Assembly (NCBI GenBank): GCA_963790105.1
Contig: CAWBNI010000015.1
Span: 1,434 to 65,433, forward strand
Length of the DNA stretch: 64,000 nt
From: an uncultured Bacteroidales bacterium
Lineage (GTDB): Bacteria; Bacteroidota; Bacteroidia; Bacteroidales; UBA10428
Direction: 5' to 3'
Shown here one piece after another: positions 1-23,842 of this stretch. The position numbers and the translations under genes were made by a program. Position 1 is the stretch's first letter. Every line of letters begins with the position of its first letter. The notes under the pieces are model-generated. The model was not told where the DNA came from. It saw only the letters and a list, made by a program, of their open reading frames with translations, and did no database searches.

Positions 1-2533
<2,533 letters not shown>

Positions 2534-2741
2534 TGTTGTACTTACAACTTAATATACAAATTATTCCAGCATGTCAAAGAACTTAATCTAATTATGAATT
2601 ATGAATTATAAATGATGAATTTAAAATTCATCCATAATCAAACAAGTAGTAATGAAACAACCGAATGTTTCCGTTTCCTAAACCACATTACCTATTTTAA
2701 AGAACTAAATTTCGAATTTCTAATACACCACAATAAAATTG

Positions 2742-2815
2742 TGGAGAATAAGGGATTCGAACCCTTGACCCCCTGCGTGCAAGGCAGGTGCTCTAGCCAG
2801 CTGAGCTAATTCCCC
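2742..2815 (-). tRNA. tRNA-Ala(TGC)
   Basis: GGGGAATTAGCTCAGCTGGCTAGAGCACCTGCCTTGCACGCAGGGGGTCAAGGGTTCGAATCCCTTATTCTCCA on the minus strand, in the ITS. Confidence 0.97.
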
Positions 2816-2820
2816 GAGGA

Positions 2821-2900
2821 ATTCATCTGTTGATTTGATTGATTTGCTGATTTGTTGATTTTAAATCATCAAATCATTAAATCATCAAATCACCAAATTT
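2821..2900. repeat. 8-bp-period inverted repeat (TTGATTTG / CAAATCAT units) between the ITS tRNAs
   Basis: ttgatttgattgatttgctgatttgttgatttt followed by aaatcatcaaatcattaaatcatcaaatcaccaaa; the two halves are complementary. Confidence 0.7.
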
Positions 2901-2903
2901 ACG

Positions 2904-2977
2904 TAGTCCCGAGCAGACTTGAACTGCTGACCCCTACATTATCAGTGTAGTGCTCTAACCAACTGAGCTACGGGACT
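2904..2977 (-). tRNA. tRNA-Ile(GAT)
   Basis: AGTCCCGTAGCTCAGTTGGTTAGAGCACTACACTGATAATGTAGGGGTCAGCAGTTCAAGTCTGCTCGGGACTA on the minus strand. Confidence 0.97.
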
Positions 2978-3151
2978 GTGTTAATCCGGTATACTCAGCT
3001 CTGCCTGTCCCGGCTTCTTCAGCAAACAGGCTACTGAGCTTAAATTCATCTGCGATTCAAAGTGCCGGGAACACTTTTCAGGGAATTAATATTTTATAAA
3101 AAAAAGAAGAGACTCGAAGGAAAGGAGAGGATTAAGAGTAAATCTCTCTCT

Positions 3152-4677
<1,526 letters not shown>

Positions 4678-12617: not shown

Positions 12618-15084
12618 ATGATCAAATTTATCGCACGGTCGGGACAACCAGCCCTGGTTGGTAAGAATTTAAGCATTTCTTATGATCAGACTGCTTTCCC
12701 GCATTCAACACTTTTCCTCCTTATTGAAAAAAATTCACAGTCAGCGCATTGTAATATTTTCGGAAAACAGGCCGGAGTGGATTTATGCATTGTATGCCGC
12801 ATGGAAGCAAGGCTCCACAATTGTGCCCATCGATGTACTTTCCTCGCGTGAAGATGTTGCTTACATTCTTCATGATTGTTCTCCCCATGTGGTCTTTTGT
12901 TCGCGTGAAAAATCCGAATTTATAAGACTGGCCCTGAAGGATGCGGATAAGGAACCGGAAGTTCTTGTTTTCGAAGACATACAGGAACCGGATGTAGTTG
13001 ACTGCGGCGGAGGAATTTGTCATTGAAGATGAACTAAGCACTGCCCTTATATTATATACATCCGGTACGACTGGCAATCCCGAAAGGCGTTATGCTTTCA
13101 TTTAAAAACCTTCTTGCAAATCTGAATGCGGTATGCCGGGATGTGCCCATTTATCATGAAGGTGACCGGGTAATGATCCTCCTGCCGTTCCATCATATTT
13201 TGCCGCTGGTTGGCTCCATTGTTGCACCGATGTATTCAGGCGGAACCATGGTTCTGAACACTTCGCTTGCTGCCGAAGATCTGATGGCAACACTCAAACA
13301 GTATAAGGTGACCATTATGATCGGTGTTCCCAGGTTATACCAGCTTATATATAAAGGTCTCAGGGAAAAGATCAATGGCAGCCTGGTGGCACGTTCACTG
13401 GTGAAGCTTGCTGAAAAAGTGGATTCCCTTTCCTTTTCAAGAAAGATATTCGGCTCTGTACAGAAAAAATTCGGAGGCAACCTGAAATATCTGGTTTGCG
13501 GTGGCGCACCCATTGATCCGGAAGTTGTCAGGCTATTTAAAACCCTCGGTTTTGAAATACTCGAAGGCTTTGGCATGACAGAAACCGCCCCGATGATCAC
13601 CTTTACCCGGCCCGGAACCGTATTGCCCGGTGTACCGGGTCATTTGTTGCCGGGAATCAAAATTAAATTTGTGGAAGGAGAGATTGTAGTTTCCGGGAGA
13701 CAACGTGATGCAGGGATATTACAATAAACCCGAAGATACCGCACAGGTGCTGAAGGATGGCTGGCTGTCCACCGGGGACCTGGGATATCTCGATGAGAAG
13801 GGATACCTGCACATCACAGGGCGCAAAAAGGAGATTATCGTACTGCCCAACGGTAAAAATATTAATCCCGAAGAAGTTGAACGGGTTGTATTGAAGAATA
13901 CAGGATTTGTGAAGGAGGTTGGGCGTTTTTCTGAAAGAAGGAATATTACAGGCCATTATTCTTCCCGATTTCAGAAAACTAAATGAAGCCGGTATTACTG
14001 ATCTGGATGATTATTTCAGATGGCAGGTGATCGATAAGGTAAACCGCACCGTTTCTCCTTATAAGAAAATCCTGAGATTCCATATTACTTCAGCCGAATT
14101 ACCCAAGACCCGCCTTGGAAAAATCAGGCGATATCTGTCTACCCGAACTGGCAGGCGTTAAAAAAGAAACAATACAGGATGAGCCCAAAACCAGGGAATA
14201 CCAGGCGATCAAGAAATTCCTTGAAGATGAAACCCAGCAACCTGTTCATCCTTCTGATCATATTGAGCTCGACCTGGCCCTGGATTCACTGGGACGGGTG
14301 AGTCTTACCGCTTTTATTGAAACAGCCTTCGGCGTGGAGGTTCCTGAAAACAGCCTGGCAGATTTTCAATCCATAGCAAAACTGGCAGAACATCTTCATC
14401 ATAAAAAGACAAGGCTTAATTTTGATGGGATCAGCTGGTCACAGATTCTGAAAGAAAAAGTACACATTAAACTTCCTGAATCGGGTCTTACACATAACCT
14501 TATTAAAAATATGTTCCAGGTGATCTTCCGCTTGTCCATGCGAATAAAGGCACATGGATTGGAAAATCTTCCGGATGAACCCTGCATTATTGCTCCCAAT
14601 CATCAGAGCGTATTGGATGGCTTTCTCGTGGCATCTCTTCTGAAACGCCGGTTCATGAAGAAGACCTATGTATATGCCAAGGAAAAACATTTCAGGGGAC
14701 GCATTCCTTCGCTTTATGGCAAACCGGAACAACATCATCCTTGTTGACGTAAATAAAGACCTTAAATTATCCATCCAGAAACTGGCCGAAGTATTGAAAA
14801 AAGGAAAGAACCTGATGATCTTTCCTGAGGGAACAAGAACACTTACCGGTAAACTGGGAGATTTTAAACAGACGTTTGCCATACTCAGCCAGGAATTGAA
14901 GGTGCCGGTCATCCCGGTGGCAATCAAGGGTTCATATGACATACTTCCCTCCGGATCCCGCTTTCCGAGATTGTTCCGAAGAGTTTCTATTGAATTTCTG
15001 AAACCGGTGTATCCTGAAGATCATACGTATGAGTCTTTGAAAAATCTGGTTTACCAGCGTCTCGAAAATAAATTGAAAGATTAA
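12618..15084 (+). CDS. Fused long-chain acyl-CoA/ACP synthetase + acyl carrier domain + PlsC acyltransferase; several indels
   Basis: IIYTSGTTG, EGFGMTET, TGDLG, GRKKE; ACP motif LALDSL; acyltransferase NHQSVLD and FPEGTRT. TAACTTTG at 12590-12597. Confidence 0.88.
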
Positions 15085-16309: not shown

Positions 16310-17377
16310 TTATAGAAAGTGAATATCCAGTTTATCCAGAAACCGTTCATCCCTCATACCAGTCCGGTTGAACATCACTACACTTCCAACCCCGGGATCG
16401 GGATAAATCCTGATTTCACAGTAAAAACCACCGCCTCCACCCGCGTGAGTATAATATTGTATACCATTCAGTTTCCCGGTGAACCAGGATAAACACATCC
16501 CTGTCGGCTTATTTCTGTTGGTGATGTTTTCAGTGAACATCCTCTTTTTATGCTCATCGGATATCAGTCATGCTTCCAGGCCGCAGAAGTTCCTGGATGT
16601 ATTTTGCAAGAGCACCGGCTGTGCCAATTAAACCTCCGTATGAAGGACCATTAACATAATTATCCCTGAATGGTTTCCACTTACCTTCCGGGGCATCCAT
16701 AAATTTTGATTTATCAATAAGCATACCCAGCACCGCATTTGAAAGGCTGAAATATTTGTGATATCCTTTGGCGATGCTGACAAAGTACAATTTCAAAATC
16801 CAGTTCATTTTTCCGGAGATTATGGGTCTTAATCACATTTTCAAGCAATGTAATTTTCATAACTCACTCCGGTAATGCCTTCAATCATTTGTCCCAGTAA
16901 TACATACCCCAGGTTGGAATAAGCAAATTTTTCATTGGGTCACGGAGCTTACCTTATTATTATCTTTTATAAATAGCTGCTGAAGTATTCGTTCCGGTCA
17001 AATGACGAAATGTTCTTCTGCCAGGTGTATCCATCGCAGGGGAATTGGATTGGGAATACCGGCAGAATGTGACATTACCTGTTCAACTGTAATTTCAGGC
17101 GGATAAGGAAATTGAGGCAGGTAGCTAATGATGGGCAGGCTTATATCTAGCGTATTGCTGACCGGCCAACTGCAGGATGGCCAGTGACCGTGAAGGTTTT
17201 TGTTACGGAAAAAGCATGATAAGCCGTTTTTTCCGAAGTTTTTATTCCACCCTTGATATCGGCAAATCCATCCCGGAATTGATGAATTATTTGATCTTTG
17301 TCGAAAAACAGGTATTGAACTGAAGGTGTCTTATTTTCCTCAATTTGCTCAGTCAAAACTGAATCAACATTTGTCAT
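16310..17377 (-). CDS. Serine hydrolase, beta-lactamase/PBP-like (class C / S12); multiple indels
   Basis: SxxK (FSVTK), YxN (FAYSNLGY), GPSYGGL, HAGGGGGF. Start overlaps the upstream stop by 4 bp. No obvious signal peptide. Confidence 0.85.
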
Positions 17378-19964
17378 AATTTTTCTGCTCTTTTTCTCAT
17401 TTCTTCTGTTTTCCTGGTCAGCATTTTAATTTGTGCCACGACTTCCGGATCATCACGGTATTTCACAAACCATGGTCCATGCTGCAATTGTGCATAATCA
17501 ATCCAGTTTGCGTCAATTGCTTTCTTTAGCCATTTGAGGGCCTCGTCACGCTGGCCTCTAATTGCATAGATTGCGGCAATATGGAACGGAGGATTTTTAT
17601 CCTGCGAACCATTTTTGATTTCATTGAGGTTGATTTCAAGCGCATGGGACAGATATACATCTGCCTCTACCTGCTTGCCTTCTTCGAGCAGGATCTGTCC
17701 CAGACCAATCGGGCTTACTGTATTAGGATCATCGATATATCCCTGGTTTTGTTCAATCGATTGTTGAAAATAGGATTGTGCACGCATTTTATCGCCGGCA
17801 AAATGGGAGATGAGACCTGCAATTTCATAGGCCCGTGAATCCGGATGGATTTTCTGCAACAGGGTATTCACCAGTTTCAGTGCATCCTGTTTCCTTCCCT
17901 GGCTAACATAACAATATGCAAGCAATTCATAGGTATCCCAGTATGAAGTGCTATTGAGCTCAAGCGATTTTTCAAGCCAGCTTACAGCATTCGGTAAATC
18001 ACCAAGCAGCTGATAGGTCCATCCGACAATCTGAAAAGGAATCGCATTCTTCGGATTTAAACCGGCCGCCTTTTTTTCCCATCTCAAAGCCTCCGGTAGA
18101 TCGCCAAGCAAGAAAATAGGAAGTTCCCAGGTTACCGATTGCCTGGGCATTGTTTGGATTGAGTTTAACTGCTTTTTTCAGCAGGATAAAGGCAGTGTCA
18201 TATCTGCCTGCATAGTTATATGCATTTGCGAGCGCCTTATAACCCTCCGATATTGTTGAATCGAGCTGGATGGCCTTTTTCGAAGCCATGATGCTGGAAT
18301 CAATCCAGGATATCTCCCTGCCAAACCGGTTATGCATCTGGCTGTATGCGTCTCCCAGTCCCGCCCATGCCAGAGCATATCCGGGGTCAAGGGCAATGGC
18401 CATTTTGAATTGCTCGATTGCCTGGTCATTGCTTTTGCTTTGGTAAAGATAATACAGCGTTCGCCCTTTGAGGTAATAATCATAGGAGGTAGGATTCTTT
18501 GTAGGCAACCGGTCAAGTTTTTCCTTTTCAAGCTGGTTGATCCGGATATTCAAAACTGCAGGCAATGCTTCGTGCAATTTCACTTTGCACAGACATAAGG
18601 TCGCGGCTGTTTCGCTGAAACGTCTCACCCCAAAGGAATTTATTGGTAGAACATTCGATCAGCCTGGCCGAGATCTTGATAATATCACCGGAACGTCGGA
18701 CACTTCCGGTGAGAATATTGGCAACATTCAGCTCGCTGGCAATCTTTTTATAGGACAGGTCGTCTCCGCGATATTCCTGGATCGACTGGCGGTTGATCAC
18801 ATGCAGGTCGCCGAGAATGGACAAATGTTCAATGATCTCATCCGTTAATCCATCTGCAAAGTATTCATCGCTCTGGTCCTCGCTGCGATTATCAAAAGGA
18901 AGAACAGCAATAGATTCTTTTGAGATTTGAACCGCCGGAAGAATTATTTCGTGAAAAATAAAAATAGACGAATTGTGAAACAACCAGAAGGCAGAGCAAA
19001 AAGATTGTCATGTTTCCGGTAAACGGTTTTTTGCGCCCCGGCCTGTATGGATTTTTAGTGGATTGGGACGAAGTGGTAAGGATGAAACCCTTCGGACTGG
19101 CTTCGAAAAACCAGGCGAGTACTAGGGCGACGGAAAACCGCATAGCAGGAACCAATCCAGGAAACCGGATATTTTATTCAGAAAGACCAACGCGGTTTGA
19201 CAGGATGATGGCCATCTGGCGCAAGGACAAGTGCAACAACGAGGTATGCAAATCCGGCCCTGAACACGTTCCGGCGCTTCAGTTCAGACCAGATCCTGCC
19301 TGATCCCTGAATCTCGAACGCAGGGCAGGTTCAGCACTGACGATCAGGGTCAGTAAGTACTTCATTTCTGTTCTGCAACGCATCCAGGATCTGATCAATC
19401 GCATTGGCGGTTTTATTGATCTGATCACGGTACACGGTTTTATTTATATTTTCAGACCGGACTGTCAGAAGGAGCGAGCGGCCGGTTTACACCCGGCGAT
19501 TTAAAAATAAACGGGATTGCCCTAGCGGCCCGCCATTTTCCTTTTCAAAAAGACGAAGATCGCCCTGGCTGAGCTCATGGATCTGTATGGGCAATATCCG
19601 GCTGGTCACATTCCGGTCGGCAAGCCGTACATCGATGCCAAAGTCATCGCCCCTGGCAAAATCACGAAATGCGAGGAATTCATGCTGCCATGCAAAACTT
19701 TTTACATCACAATAGGTCTGGGAAATGATGGGTATGAAGATGAGGCACTTCAGTTTCCCTTCCAGGCTCTTATTTACATTGTGGGTCTCAAGCAGGCCAT
19801 CCTGAGGATTGCTGATCGAAATAAACCGAAACGGTTTCCTTGATGGTACCCCTCAACTCCTTCTCAAGGTTTTTTACAAAATCGGAAACCCAGCCATCAA
19901 GATTATCATTGTGGCGGTAGCTGATGAAAATGTCGTATTCATAAGCCGGTATCAGGCTTGCCAT
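17374..19964 (-). CDS. TIR-domain / 3TM / TolB-like / TPR membrane protein; multiple indels
   Basis: Manual translation from ATG 19964 gives MASLIPAYEYDIFISYRHNDNLDGWVSDF...LIFIPIISQTYCDVKSFAWQHEF (TIR). Then ELKRRNVFRAGFAYL and ALVLAWFFE TM block, SIAVLPFDN..DEYFADGLTDEII (TolB-like) and TPRs (AIALDPGYALAWAGLG). Confidence 0.85.
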
Positions 19965-20031
19965 AGTGAAAATATCAGTTTACCCGAATAATATGGATCA
20001 TTAACATTCTGTAAATGTTTTTGTTCTCGGA

Positions 20032-21262
20032 TTACCGCGATGGAATCTGATAAACCGTTCCATTGCAATCGACTGTGCCATTGCTTGCAGGTGCTGCCTC
20101 TTCTCGCATGGATAATTCCGGCAACGAGTGCACAGGCCATGGACGTTCCCGACATAACCTGGTATTGACGGCCAGGCCAGGTGGAAATTATTGCAGAACC
20201 AGGGGCGGCCCAGTCAACTGCAGGTTTTCCGTAATTGGAATAGGATGCACATCCGGTAATACCGGTCGAACAATCAAAATCCAGGGCTGCTACAGTAAAA
20301 ACATTAGGGCCGTTGATGCATCCGGGCAGATTGAGATTGGCGTCTCCCTGGTCATTCCCGGCCGACATAACAATAAACATTCCGCTGTTTGCAAGTTCCT
20401 GGATGGCTGAAAACAAGGAAGGATTTGATCTCTCACACGAAGAAACATCATACCCACCCAGGCTCATCATGACCACATCGCCTGGCCTGCCCGTATTTTG
20501 CAATATGATCAAGTCCCTTGAGAATATTTGACCAGGAACCAACGCCATTCCTGTCAAGCACTTTAACCGGAATTACCTCCGCCCCGGAAGAAACACCGTT
20601 ACATGCCAATTTTGCCGACTCCCTTTCCGGCGGCAATTCCGGCACAATGCGTTCCATGACCTGCGTAATCATCGGTTGCGACTTTCACCGGGTATAAATG
20701 AAACGGGAATATTGCCCCTGGAGTTTACTTTTAGATCGGGATGATTTTTATCGATGCCGGAATCCATGATCCAGATCGACTTCTTTACGGTTGTCACTGT
20801 TTACGGATCCGCCAACCAGGTTGACAGCACAGCTTGATTTGGTTGTTTCGTTATAATTCCATGATTGCTGGATGGGACTTCCCTGCTGGATGGGTATTCC
20901 TTGCTGGATTGGAATTCCCTGCATTTCGAAATCCTCGTAAACACCTTCCACATTCGGATCTTGGCCAGTTCACCTACCTGATCCTCGGTGAGATCGGCCT
21001 CAAATCCAACCTTGGCGTCGGCAAATTTATAGGATCGGAGAAATTCGTTTTGATTTTGGCAAAACCATCAACCTTCTGGATAATTTCCTGTCTCGTTCTG
21101 GCTTGTTTCCATTATTTTGCTGCTCTCTGTCAGCATTATCCACCCGGTTTCGAATTACCGGAGCTTCAAACCCCTCTTTCATGATTACTACATAATGCTT
21201 CTGAGCGGACAGGCCGTAAGAGTTTAGCCAATACTAAAAAGAGAATAAATAATCTTCTTCAT
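20032..21262 (-). CDS. Secreted subtilisin-like S8 protease with I9-type propeptide; multiple indels
   Basis: Triad motifs WIMDSGID, GHGTHCAG and MSGTSMA; oxyanion SAGN; signal peptide from ATG 21262; propeptide YVVIMKEG...VEGVYEDFEM. Confidence 0.9.
20865..20918 (-). repeat. 3 x 18-bp in-frame repeat encoding GIPIQQ-GIPIQQ-GSPIQQ
   Basis: gga att cca atc cag caa / gga ata ccc atc cag cag / gga agt ccc atc cag caa. Confidence 0.95.
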
Positions 21263-21415: not shown

Positions 21416-23842
21416 TCAGTTTGCTATAACAACATATTTCCCGGCAGCCATTTCAAATTCGCCCCGGACAATGTTTACCTCAATTATTTTGTTTTTTGCA
21501 AGGTCCAATACAACACATTTTGCTTTTTGATACGCCTCAGGGATAATTATTTTTGCCCGGGCATTTTCAGGAATTGTAAAATTAAGGGCAAAAGATTTCC
21601 CTTTTATTCCCCATTCTGATGAAATCGTTCCTTTTATAGAGTTATAGGAACATTTAACCCACTTTATGTTGCCCACAGGTTTTGGCGCTATAATAATATG
21701 GTCATATGCAACTGAATTTTCAGCCTGGTAAATTCCTCCCAGACCGCTATAGAACCATTCCATAAGATGGCCCAGCATCATATGATCGTTCGATGAGGTA
21801 GGAAGTGCAGCCCAACTTTCGGTTAAAGCGGTAGCACCCTTTTTTAACTGGTATCCGTAACCAGGCACATCGCTTCTGTTGTTCATTTTGTAGAGTATAT
21901 CCGATCTTCCGTTTTCACTTAATACCCTTACAAGAAAGTGATAGCCAATGTCACCTGAAGTCAGTGCATAATTGTTCTTTATAATTGAGTTTACCAGGTT
22001 GTCAAAAACTTTCTTTTTATCCTTGTCCGGAATTAATCCGGTATAAAGCGACATGGCATAAGCGGTCTGGCTTCCGGTAGAACAAATCCCGGTGTTTTCA
22101 TCGTAAAATTCAGTAAGATATGCTTGCTTTACCATTTCGGATTGATCATTATAATTTTTATAATCGTTGTCAAATCCGAGTATTTTAGACATTTCTGAGA
22201 TGAGCTTTAAATCATAAAAATAAATGGCTGTGGCAGTAACTGCTTTTGGAGTCAATTGGGCTTCCCCGGGATATTTTGGACCCAGGTCATACCAGTCACC
22301 CAGTCCATAGTCAATTATATGATCAATTGATTTGCCCTGCAGATAATCCACATATCGCTTCATCATGGGGTAGGCGCGCTTTATTGCATCCATATCCCCA
22401 TACCATTTATATAAAAGCCAGGGAATTATGACCGCGGCACTTCCCCACTCGGGAGAATCGCGAAAACCACCTTCAAAATGAACATATTCAGGGGCAATGT
22501 CCGGTATTAACCCGTTATCGAGCTGAGAATCCATCATATCATCCAGAATCTTATTATATAAAGAATGGATATCAAAATTGTAATGCATGGATGACCCGAT
22601 AAGATAGGTCTGCTCAAGCCAGCCCAGCTTTTCCCGATGCGGGCAATCGGTTGCTACACTGGCCATATTGCTTTTGATACCCCAGTTGATCAGTTCAAAA
22701 ATCCGGTTGAAAAGTGTATCGGAGCAGCTGAAGGATCCCACTGTGGGAGAAGAATTTCGGGTGTGAAGCATTGTAACGTCCAGGATCTCTGTTTTTTTTG
22801 TCGCTCCCTCAGGTTCAATAATTTCAACATCGGCATATCGAAATCCGTAATAGCTGAATGCCGGCTTCCATTCCTCCTCGTCACCTCCCTTAAGGATATA
22901 ATTAAATTCGTAAGGACCACCGCCACTCACCTGGGTTATGTTTCCCTGGTCATTGATCAGTTCATCCGGCCTTATTCTGATTTGAGCACCCCTGTTTCCT
23001 TTTACTTTTAATGCAATTATTCCGGAAGTGTTCTGCCCGAAATCATAAATTATCCTTCCGGTCCGCGAATGAGAGATATTCTTTACAGGGAATTTCTGCA
23101 TCACTTTAACCGGAAAATCCTCCTCAGGTGCAAGTTTGCCGATGGAATCATGAATAATAACCGGGGCCTTCCATTTTGAATCGTCAAATCCCGGAGCTGG
23201 CCCATCCATTTTGCTCCAGCCTGGCATCATAGTCTTCACCCCCGTATATACTGCTGAATGTAATGGGCGAAGCACTTGTTTTACAATTTTCATCCGATTG
23301 AATGGTCTTTAAAGAACCATCTTTCATTTTAAGGACAATATTAAATATCAGCCTTGGATAGCCATAGGCTACCACCATCTTTCGATAACGTTCCCTGTTA
23401 ATATTAAAAAAGCCATTGCCAACAATAACACCAATCACATTATCACCTTTTTTAACAAACCGGGTTATATCGTATGTATTATAAAAGCAGCGTTTCTGAT
23501 AATAGGTCCAGCCCGGTGACAAAAAACGATCGCTGATTTTTTCGCCGTTTATATACAGTTCATATTGCCCCAGCCCGCAAATATTGATTGAAGCGCTGTC
23601 AATATCTCCCTTTGCATTGAACTCTTTGCGAAACAGGGGTACCACTGAACGCTTTACACATTTGTCACCCAGACCATCGCCTGGCACCATGAATTGCAGG
23701 CACCACCTTCAGGGTGTCTGCCAATTGTTCGAATGCAATCCATTGTGCACCGCCAAAGATTTCAACCTTACCGGATTTGTTTTTTCTGGGTACAGCCAGT
23801 AAAAGGATAGCTGCAAGAAATAAAATAAAAACTTCTGACCAT
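21416..23842 (-). CDS. Alpha-L-rhamnosidase (GH78); indels in the 5' part
   Basis: LFRKEF, GLGQYELYING, GGEDYDAR, DFGQN, YYGFRY, TDCPHREKLGW, GLGDW, GATALTESW, SNDHMMLG. Confidence 0.92.

Follow-up and report, generated by a model that had tools for sequence, protein, structure and literature searches.

The window analysed here is a 64,000-nucleotide stretch of the genome of an uncultured Bacteroidales bacterium (contig CAWBNI010000015.1, positions 1,434 to 65,433). Three co-oriented genes run on its minus strand from position 21262 to 16310, and none of the three is an open frame as assembled. In our best reading, the core of the locus is a two-gene module of a subtilisin-family (S8) protease and a membrane receptor. 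The protease carries tandem hexapeptide units at the junction of its propeptide and catalytic domain. The receptor is composed of an N-terminal domain of predicted TIR fold, a membrane region, and a putative periplasmic sensor built of TolB-like and tetratricopeptide repeat (TPR) parts. Comparison of homologous loci gives good support for the protease-receptor module and for the special status of the repeats. A mechanism in which the protease supplies the units as ligands of the receptor is plausible.

Conservation of the protease-receptor pair

A close orthologue of the pair is present in one of the 40 relatives searched, the genus-mate G019, in which both genes are intact and 4 bp apart. The G019 proteins served as phmmer queries against the open frames of loci from 401 genomes of the class and 401 genomes of family f36 (Cyclobacteriaceae, as judged from named matches). 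Forty loci were fetched around S8 matches, and at least 80 mostly generic S8 loci were added as background. A TolB-like/TPR receptor lies within 2 kb of 22 repeat-bearing S8 open reading frames (ORFs) in 18 loci, and three repeat-bearing ORFs are without one. None of the 107 repeat-less S8 ORFs, located in 99 loci and including seven that fail the Asp-motif pattern, has such a neighbour. When the window and the metagenome locus L145 are added to the 18 genome loci, the receptor stands beside the repeat-bearing S8 gene in 20 of 22 assessable loci. The distance between the two genes is at most 200 bp, and up to 1.3 kb for second S8 paralogues. The genes are co-directional in the window genome (G000) and in G019, whereas the remaining 18 loci have them in convergent orientation, often with a tail-to-tail overlap. 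Of the three repeat-bearing ORFs without a receptor, those of L019 and L101 are on contigs that end on the relevant side. An earlier note on this DNA had stated that its reading would be refuted by an adjacency that is not conserved or by repeats that occur independently of receptor neighbours. On both counts the survey came out in favour of the note: the adjacency is conserved, and the repeats were found only in the receptor-linked S8 clade.

A motif-first DNA search of metagenomes for two consecutive GRPIQQ units returned four matches, all of them at S8 junctions. One of these genes lies 2 bp from a TIR-type receptor gene (L145), one is flanked by other genes (L143), and the two remaining contigs are too short. 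A scan of the metagenome contigs with the S8 homologue P0001 gave 71 pattern matches, none of which was confirmed.

Architecture of the locus in the window

The features of the locus are as follows.

20032..21262, minus strand: gene for an S8 protease of the subtilisin family, encoding a signal peptide, an I9-like propeptide, the junction units and the catalytic domain; about 10 frameshifts
20865..20918, minus strand: tandem hexapeptide units GIPIQQ GIPIQQ GSPIQQ, between the propeptide end EDFEMQ and the catalytic start SWNYNE
17374..19964, minus strand: receptor gene encoding the TIR-fold N-domain, three transmembrane segments, a TolB-like domain and a TPR array; about 9 frameshifts
19350..19964, minus strand: predicted TIR-fold cytoplasmic domain, approximate borders, from an AlphaFold2 model of residues 1-215 of the G019 orthologue
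18957..19283, minus strand: membrane region of three hydrophobic segments, approximate borders, read from the sequence
17377..18911, minus strand: predicted periplasmic sensor, TolB-like from SIAVLPF, then the TPR array and an end-of-group domain
16310..17377, minus strand: beta-lactamase-family serine hydrolase, PF00144 on two fragments, motifs SVTK and YSN; frameshifted

The S8 gene is spread over at least eight frame fragments, the largest of which matches the Pfam family Peptidase_S8 (PF00082, E 1.4e-16). The catalytic motifs WIMDSGID, HGTHCAG and SGTSMA are readable in different frames. Tandem Repeats Finder reports the units as a repeat of period 18 with 3.2 copies and 84% matches at 20866-20922. 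The receptor begins with MASLIPAYEYDIFISYRHNDN, 67 bp past the S8 stop, and overlaps the hydrolase gene by 4 bp (17374-17377). Its fragments have strong TPR matches and a weak FlgO match in Pfam. The three hydrophobic segments that precede the TolB-like part are readable in the receptor homologue P0132 and in the window fragments. The G019 orthologue has just the last of them. The borders of the TIR-fold domain are approximate because of the frameshifts. The gene order, the gap and the overlap given in the earlier note, together with its other listed features, were all confirmed in the sequence at the positions it gave.

Repeat-bearing S8 proteases

The intact G019 protease (L011:9042-10262) is 406 residues long. 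It is composed of a signal peptide, an I9-like propeptide ending in VQ, three GIPIQQ units followed by SWNY, and a Peptidase_S8 domain (PF00082, E 1e-36). The propeptide match to I9 (PF05922, E 9.6e-4) reaches 20.2 bits against a cut-off of 21.2, and I9 is among the precomputed annotations of many homologues. Residues D165, H200 and S371, which form the catalytic triad in the order D, H, S, and the oxyanion residue N300 are invariant in 22 S8 sequences. In the clade alignment, the triad, the oxyanion Asn and four Cys residues are invariant or nearly so, and the protease is apparently active. The G019 protein is without the C-terminal T9SS domain (type IX secretion system). Since this domain is missing and the cysteines are conserved, the Sec-exported protease is probably periplasmic. 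The AlphaFold model of the G019 protease has an overall confidence (pLDDT) of 86. In the model, the propeptide has a beta-alpha-beta topology and ends in a strand of residues 111-113, and the unit region is without regular structure and has the lowest confidence (55-60).

A search with the G019 protease identified 1,088 proteins at E <= 1e-10. Among the best 120 of these, the 18 closest full-length homologues (P0001 to P0019 without the fragment P0005) all have xPxMQ or xPIQQ units at the same junction, P0008 having one unit. P0045, P0055 and P0120 also carry units, and the rest of the best 120 do not. In a quick tree of 58 S8 proteins, limited to rows of 380-500 residues with E < 1e-38, a branch with 99% support holds all repeat-less rows on one side, and the repeat-bearing S8 proteins all fall to one side of a single branch. 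Therefore, a single origin of the repeats is possible.

Second, much diverged S8 paralogues of 451-484 residues stand in tandem with the first in four loci of family f36 (L092, L093, L094 and L096). Each contains two units parted by a spacer of 8-10 residues. In G304 (L125), only the second type of S8 adjoins the receptor.

Conservation of the junction units

Repeat-bearing S8 junctions contain two to five xPxxQ units in the loci examined, and homologous units occur in 25 S8 ORFs besides that of the window. The unit Pro, the final Gln of the unit, and the Gln that closes the propeptide (DFx[MIV]Q) are nearly invariant in the alignment. When unit copies within one protein are compared (n = 318 codon pairs), 156 pairs differ synonymously and 17 non-synonymously, the latter mostly at unit position 1. 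The copies are therefore old as DNA and have been kept identical as peptides, which shows, at the level of codons, that selection acts on the unit peptide.

The unit sequence varies among orthologues (IPIQQ, RPIQQ, KPIQQ, QPIQQ, RPIHQ, NPIHQ, NPMQQ, RPRMQ, KPRMQ and RARMQ), and the copies in one S8 protein change together. Four loci have two diverged tandem S8 paralogues with units in both. Unit position 3 is Ala in both paralogues of G732 and of G769, and Pro in both paralogues of G825 and of G798. The lone S8 protein of G304 also has RARMQ.

The earlier note had suggested testing whether the repeat sequence co-varies with TPR pocket residues. We compared the receptors partnered with MQ-type units, which form two lineages, with those partnered with IQQ- and IHQ-type units. 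Twenty-five alignment columns separate the two groups against 6-17 in control groupings, a difference that is a lead only, the control being unmatched for branch length. Both MQ lineages have acidic residues at positions 407 and 709 of the G019 receptor, which is likewise a lead only.

TIR-fold domain and cyclase as receptor outputs

The G019 receptor (L011:6704-9037) has 777 residues and consists of the N-domain, one transmembrane segment, the TolB-like part, and a TPR array whose last domain is TPR_END_plus. Pfam identifies no TIR family at E <= 0.01 in the receptors of L011 and L097 and none in the window, and a PDB sequence search with the N-domain gave no match at E <= 10. The AlphaFold2 model of the G019 N-domain (residues 1-215, 37 sequences) has a pLDDT of 87. 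A Foldseek search of the PDB with this model returned 29 matches at E <= 0.001. The best of them are nearly all TIR structures (SNC1, BtpA, PdTIR, RUN1, AbTir and SARM1), with E down to 6.7e-6. In an Atlas feature search, 21 of 30 matches share the TIR_2/TIR families (a lead only). According to the model, the receptor N-domain is a TIR fold, as the earlier note had claimed, although Pfam is silent.

Residues W92 and E95, at the start of helix 90-105, are invariant in the 37 sequences. In general position this site resembles the WxxxE region of TIR NADases, in which their catalytic Glu lies, and E95 is a candidate equivalent of that Glu. The domain additionally carries an extension of about 90 residues, formed by strands and a long helix. 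The family of TIR-fold N-domains without Pfam annotation comprises 2,883 proteins at E <= 1e-5, which are typically 55-70% identical over the domain. Family paralogues number eight in G679 and seven in G806, and there are two loci in the window genome and one in G019.

The second locus of the window genome (G000:C28:122370-124535, L132) encodes an intact protein of 721 residues with a TIR-fold N-domain and a TolB-like sensor, which falls outside the S8-linked sensor clade described below. In Cyclobacteriaceae, seven to eight TIR-fold/TolB-like receptor paralogues are clustered on one contig (G679:C6, 398-461 kb; G806:C14, 22-118 kb). Three of them stand in a row around a single S8 gene in L099 (G679:C6:392000-408000). 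Atlas clusters, which carry automatic labels, also contain the TIR-fold N-domain of about 200 residues fused to PD40/Tricorn-like propellers, FGE-sulfatase and guanylate-cyclase domains in Bacteroidota. These fusions suggest that the TIR-fold N-domain is a general output or adaptor module.

The receptors partnered with S8 proteases have one of two outputs, a TIR-type domain in seven loci and a class III nucleotide cyclase in 13. The adenylate/guanylate cyclase family PF00211 was found at the N-terminus of both cyclase-type receptors tested (L092, E 1.5e-13; L117, E 2.4e-16), and the other eleven were assigned by the FSDIVGYT motif alone. The cyclase-type receptor of L117 (G497:C55) is present as two frames, one of 245 residues for the cyclase and one of 524 residues for the TolB-like/TPR part, which overlap by 68 bp, owing to a frameshift or a genuine split. 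The earlier note had described the module as a Toll-like circuit. The description agrees with the TIR-type receptors in seven of 20 loci and fails for the rest; since 13 of the 20 have a cyclase output, it fits one variant of the module only.

A sensor clade linked to the protease

The G019 receptor has profile matches to TPR_END_plus (E 3.3e-21) and TolB (E 9.6e-5). Weak matches to CadC (E 8.6e-12) and TIGR04510 (E 2.3e-10) are both far below the cut-offs. Homologues are annotated at source as 'TolB-like protein' or 'adenylate cyclase'. We infer that the N-domain is cytoplasmic and that the sensor is periplasmic, following one or three transmembrane segments.

All 15 partnered sensors included in a tree of the periplasmic parts belong to one clade (support of 99 in the SH-like approximate likelihood-ratio test, SH-aLRT), whatever their output domain. 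The clade also takes in P0132, P0122, and two proteins without known context. All eight unpartnered TIR paralogues fall outside it. This quick tree was calculated without ten rows in which the motif used to delimit the domain was not found, namely the partnered receptors of L097, L116 and L117, five paralogues, and two database proteins. As the partnered sensors form one clade across the outputs, the protease goes with the sensor and not with the output. Co-folding of receptor residues 255-777 with S8 residues 100-142 gave a score of 0.02 against a mark of 0.32, which counts neither for nor against an interaction.

Proposed mechanism

We propose that the protease zymogen is the precursor of a multi-copy ligand for the periplasmic TPR sensor, and we give this proposal, which is drawn from sequence comparisons, slightly less than an even chance. 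The zymogen has its two to five identical xPxxQ units in a flexible stretch that joins the I9 propeptide to the catalytic domain, and would cut itself after the Gln that closes the propeptide (DFx[MV]Q). It would then cut after the final Gln of each unit, a step suggested by analogy with the Gln closing the propeptide, and release several copies of one hexapeptide. The peptide would bind the TPR/TolB-like sensor and induce dimerisation or oligomerisation of the receptor. Class III cyclases and TIR enzymes need dimers or oligomers. The cyclase, producing cyclic nucleotide monophosphate (cNMP), or the TIR domain, producing an NAD+-derived product or NAD+ loss, would thereby be switched on, and the module would report protease maturation or cell density.

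In its widest form, the proposal describes a Bacteroidota pathway of ligand-gated transmembrane TIR or cyclase receptors. A periplasmic subtilase would be the precursor of its own multi-copy hexapeptide signal, the TolB-like/TPR ectodomain would be dedicated to that signal, and the TIR domain would act as a signal-generating enzyme on a par with a nucleotide cyclase. We put this version forward as a tentative possibility.

Several observations weigh against the ligand proposal. The cleavage of the units and their binding to the receptor remain predictions from sequence. The identity of the copies could stem from the cleavage specificity of the protease itself and not from a receptor pocket. 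The association of repeats and receptor may trace to one origin, so that the counts of loci would not be independent events. The repeat-bearing S8 gene of L115 is truly without a receptor and has a Band7 neighbour, and that of L143 has a different downstream gene in place of the receptor. In the fetched loci, the genes next to the pair include no conserved reader for the product of a TIR domain or a cyclase.

The S8 protein of L143 (1250-2614) contains two GRPIQQ units and has a lipoprotein-like signal (…VMLDCG). The gene downstream of it encodes a 594-residue protein of unknown type.

Alternative explanations

The uncut zymogen could itself be the ligand. Its two to five identical units would then be docking motifs on a single chain that bring two or more receptor sensors together, leading to dimers of the cyclase or oligomers of the TIR domain, and autoprocessing or a foreign protease would end or change the signal. 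Such a tether would explain why the units in the loci examined always number at least two, P0008 having one unit after the primary site, and the spacing of some units by 4-10 residues (L092_8776, L097 and L099) fits separate docking points. The requirement of the outputs for dimers or oligomers agrees with it, and the evidence from adjacency, sensor clade and codons applies to it equally. However, each unit ends in Gln like the primary site DFx[MV]Q and thus looks like a repeated cleavage site, and binding of the uncut units to the sensor is purely predicted. We regard the multivalent tether as unlikely.

Alternatively, the protease could cut or trim the receptor sensor or a substrate shared with it, and the units would be autoprocessing sites that delay or grade its activation. 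It is well established that membrane regulators with periplasmic domains can be subject to site-1 proteolysis. The conserved adjacency and the sensor-specific clade are compatible with such regulated proteolysis, as are the last residue of the units, which is like that of the primary cleavage site, the flexibility of the modelled linker, and the weak CadC match of the receptor (E 8.6e-12, which falls far short of the cut-off). Nevertheless, positions P4-P2 are not the same in the primary site (F-x-M/V-Q) as in the units (P-x-x-Q), and the mutual identity of the units goes beyond what cleavage alone should require. The change from Pro to Ala, which is found in parallel in the two paralogues of a locus, also speaks against this explanation. 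This explanation is improbable to about the same degree as the tether.

A further alternative concerns the window itself, in which the locus could be a decaying pseudogene cluster instead of intact genes that were mis-assembled. Frameshift-aware alignment of the window S8 gene to its closest intact relative, P0001, identified ten frameshifts with 348 of 405 residues identical, and alignment of the window receptor to P0132 identified nine frameshifts with 727 of 858 residues identical. P0001 and P0132 each come from a 5,443-bp contig, possibly one and the same. Relative to the G019 orthologues, there are nine frameshifts in the S8 gene and eight in the receptor gene. The aligned codons contain no in-frame stops (0 of 404 and 0 of 776, or 0 of 1,180 together). 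The proportion of non-synonymous differences (pN) from G019 is 0.17 for the S8 gene and 0.19 for the receptor gene, and that of synonymous differences (pS) is saturated. The combination of indels without nonsense changes and clear purifying selection points to consensus errors rather than decay.

Decay would agree with the presence of about 20 frameshifts within 4 kb of a window in which some genes are intact over 3 kb, and with the intact 721-residue frame of the paralogous receptor on contig C28. The stop-free coverage is uneven along the window, for example 0.17 at 48-52 kb against 0.99 at 36-40 kb. The frameshift density is patchy, and real decay in this one genome is possible, which is a further point against a functional module in the window. 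On the other side stand the lack of in-frame stops, the 85-86% amino-acid identity to the intact relative in corrected frames, and the predominance of single extra bases among the events. Unrelated flanking genes are also split across several frames, and the completeness of the window genome is just 83%. Both flanking genes, named by eye from their translations, have broken frames: an AMP-dependent ligase/acyltransferase-like gene on the plus strand (12682-15084) and an alpha-L-rhamnosidase-like gene on the minus strand (21416-23690). In the organism itself, the three genes are most likely unbroken and the frameshifts are assembly errors, and we consider a pseudogene cluster quite improbable.

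A neutral reading, in which the repeats would be no more than low-complexity linker and the adjacency would be synteny inherited within one lineage, is very improbable: a single ancestor of all repeat-bearing S8 genes, and the equal synteny of a GH20 gene and an acyltransferase-like gene in cyclase-type loci, would allow it, but those two genes are absent from TIR-type loci, the adjacency outlasts gene inversion, family transfer (f36/f1), output swap, and loss or gain of S8 paralogues, and the 156:17 ratio of synonymous to non-synonymous differences between copies opposes neutrality.

Hydrolase and other neighbours

The earlier note had included the serine hydrolase downstream of the receptor as a coupled member of the module. 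Two fragments of the hydrolase match PF00144, at E 1.3e-6 (28.3 bits, which exceeds the cut-off of 27) and 7.3e-5 (22.5 bits, below it). The motifs SVTK, YSNLGY and HAGGG are readable across at least four frame changes. The N-terminus is not hydrophobic, and the protein has no signal peptide. No hydrolase homologue was found in any other fetched locus, and the G019 pair is without one, the next genes there being unrelated. The hydrolase is not conserved with the pair and was ruled out as a third component on these two grounds; it is a local neighbour.

GH20 and acyltransferase-like genes, which are syntenic in cyclase-type loci only, were ruled out as components and attributed to family-level synteny. 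Nothing besides the S8-receptor pair is conserved across both output types. PADLOC gave no system-level match for the locus; individual matches are to a generic subtilase model (E 1.3e-16), to IetS (weak, 2.9e-6), and to a TPR model (3.5e-7). A known defence system was rejected, as PADLOC places the two proteins in no one described system.

The first part of the window, positions 1-4675, contains part of a ribosomal RNA (rRNA) operon on the minus strand, with 23S rRNA at 1-2533 (cut by the window edge) and 16S rRNA at 3154-4675. Two tRNAs are located in this part, at 2742-2815 and 2904-2977. The first 5 kb of the window are without open frames because of the operon part.

Comparison with known systems

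The module looks like an apparently undescribed means by which bacteria produce and perceive a peptide signal. In the full-text literature, no description was found of the module, the unit motifs, or the family of TIR-fold N-domains, with subscription journals and supplements outside the scope of the search. The SPADE paper and an eLife paper (PMC8195603) are unrelated to the module.

If the proposed mechanism is true, the module would be what protease-to-ligand-to-Toll signalling corresponds to in bacteria, and it would add a new form of peptide sensing in diderms. To our knowledge, TPR receptors that read peptide signals have been described almost exclusively in Firmicutes, where they are cytoplasmic. 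The TIR domains known from bacteria are mainly defence enzymes inside the cell, and the module would reveal how such a domain can be governed by a cue from outside the cytoplasm. The swap of TIR and cyclase suggests that a TIR domain can generate second messengers in everyday signalling. With their easy read-out (cyclic AMP in a cya-minus Escherichia coli), the cyclase-type orthologues open the idea to a direct test. The TIR-fold N-domain family, with its 2,883 members, would gain a first functional handle.

The nearest working analogy appears to be Rap-Phr and the related RRNPP systems. The precursor of the competence and sporulation factor (CSF) and other Phr precursors are cut by subtilisin-family proteases. 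In these systems, as proposed for the module, a short peptide from an exported precursor is released and read by a TPR receptor. The units of the module are inside the protease zymogen, whereas Phr is encoded by a separate small gene. The sensor of the module is predicted to be periplasmic and membrane-anchored, while the RRNPP receptor is cytoplasmic and fed by an oligopeptide permease. The outputs also differ, being TIR or nucleotide cyclase in the module, and the hosts are diderm Bacteroidota instead of Firmicutes. The combination of a cytoplasmic TPR receptor and a small adjacent peptide gene, by which RRNPP systems are recognised, is absent from the module. Tandem copies have a precedent, since some Phr precursors hold the autoinducer in several tandem copies, which TPR receptors read (PMC5199041).

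The module resembles the Toll/Spaetzle system of insects in the proposed serine-protease step that makes the extracellular ligand for a membrane receptor with one or a few transmembrane passes and a cytoplasmic TIR domain. The ectodomain is TPR/TolB-like in the module and a leucine-rich repeat (LRR) in Toll, with no homology of ectodomain or ligand. The protease belongs to S8 in the module and to S1 in the Toll pathway, and the ligand of the module would be part of the protease. As the TIR-type is the minority, with cyclase in its place in 13 of 20 modules, the resemblance is an analogy only.

Regulators with the arrangement of output, transmembrane segment, TolB-like part and TPR, in which the output is a cyclase, a winged helix-turn-helix (wHTH)/CadC-like domain or a kinase, share the sensor architecture of the module. 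TIGR04510 of NCBIfam is such a model; its name, 'putative peptide modification system cyclase', presumably reflects a link to a peptide system. The S8-linked sensors differ from these regulators in forming a separate clade, and neither the TIR-fold output nor the protease partner is part of their descriptions.

The TIR defence enzymes (Thoeris ThsB, AbTir and SPARTA) have the TIR fold in common with the module, and the invariant Trp...Glu of the module at the start of helix C resembles the catalytic WxxxE region of TIR NADases. Unlike them, the TIR domain of the module is without a Pfam TIR match and has the extension of about 90 residues, and PADLOC gave no system-level match. Its interchangeability with a cyclase points to signalling rather than suicide. 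The unusual features of the module are the putative ligand units embedded in a protease, the membrane-anchored TPR sensor, and the interchangeable TIR and cyclase outputs.

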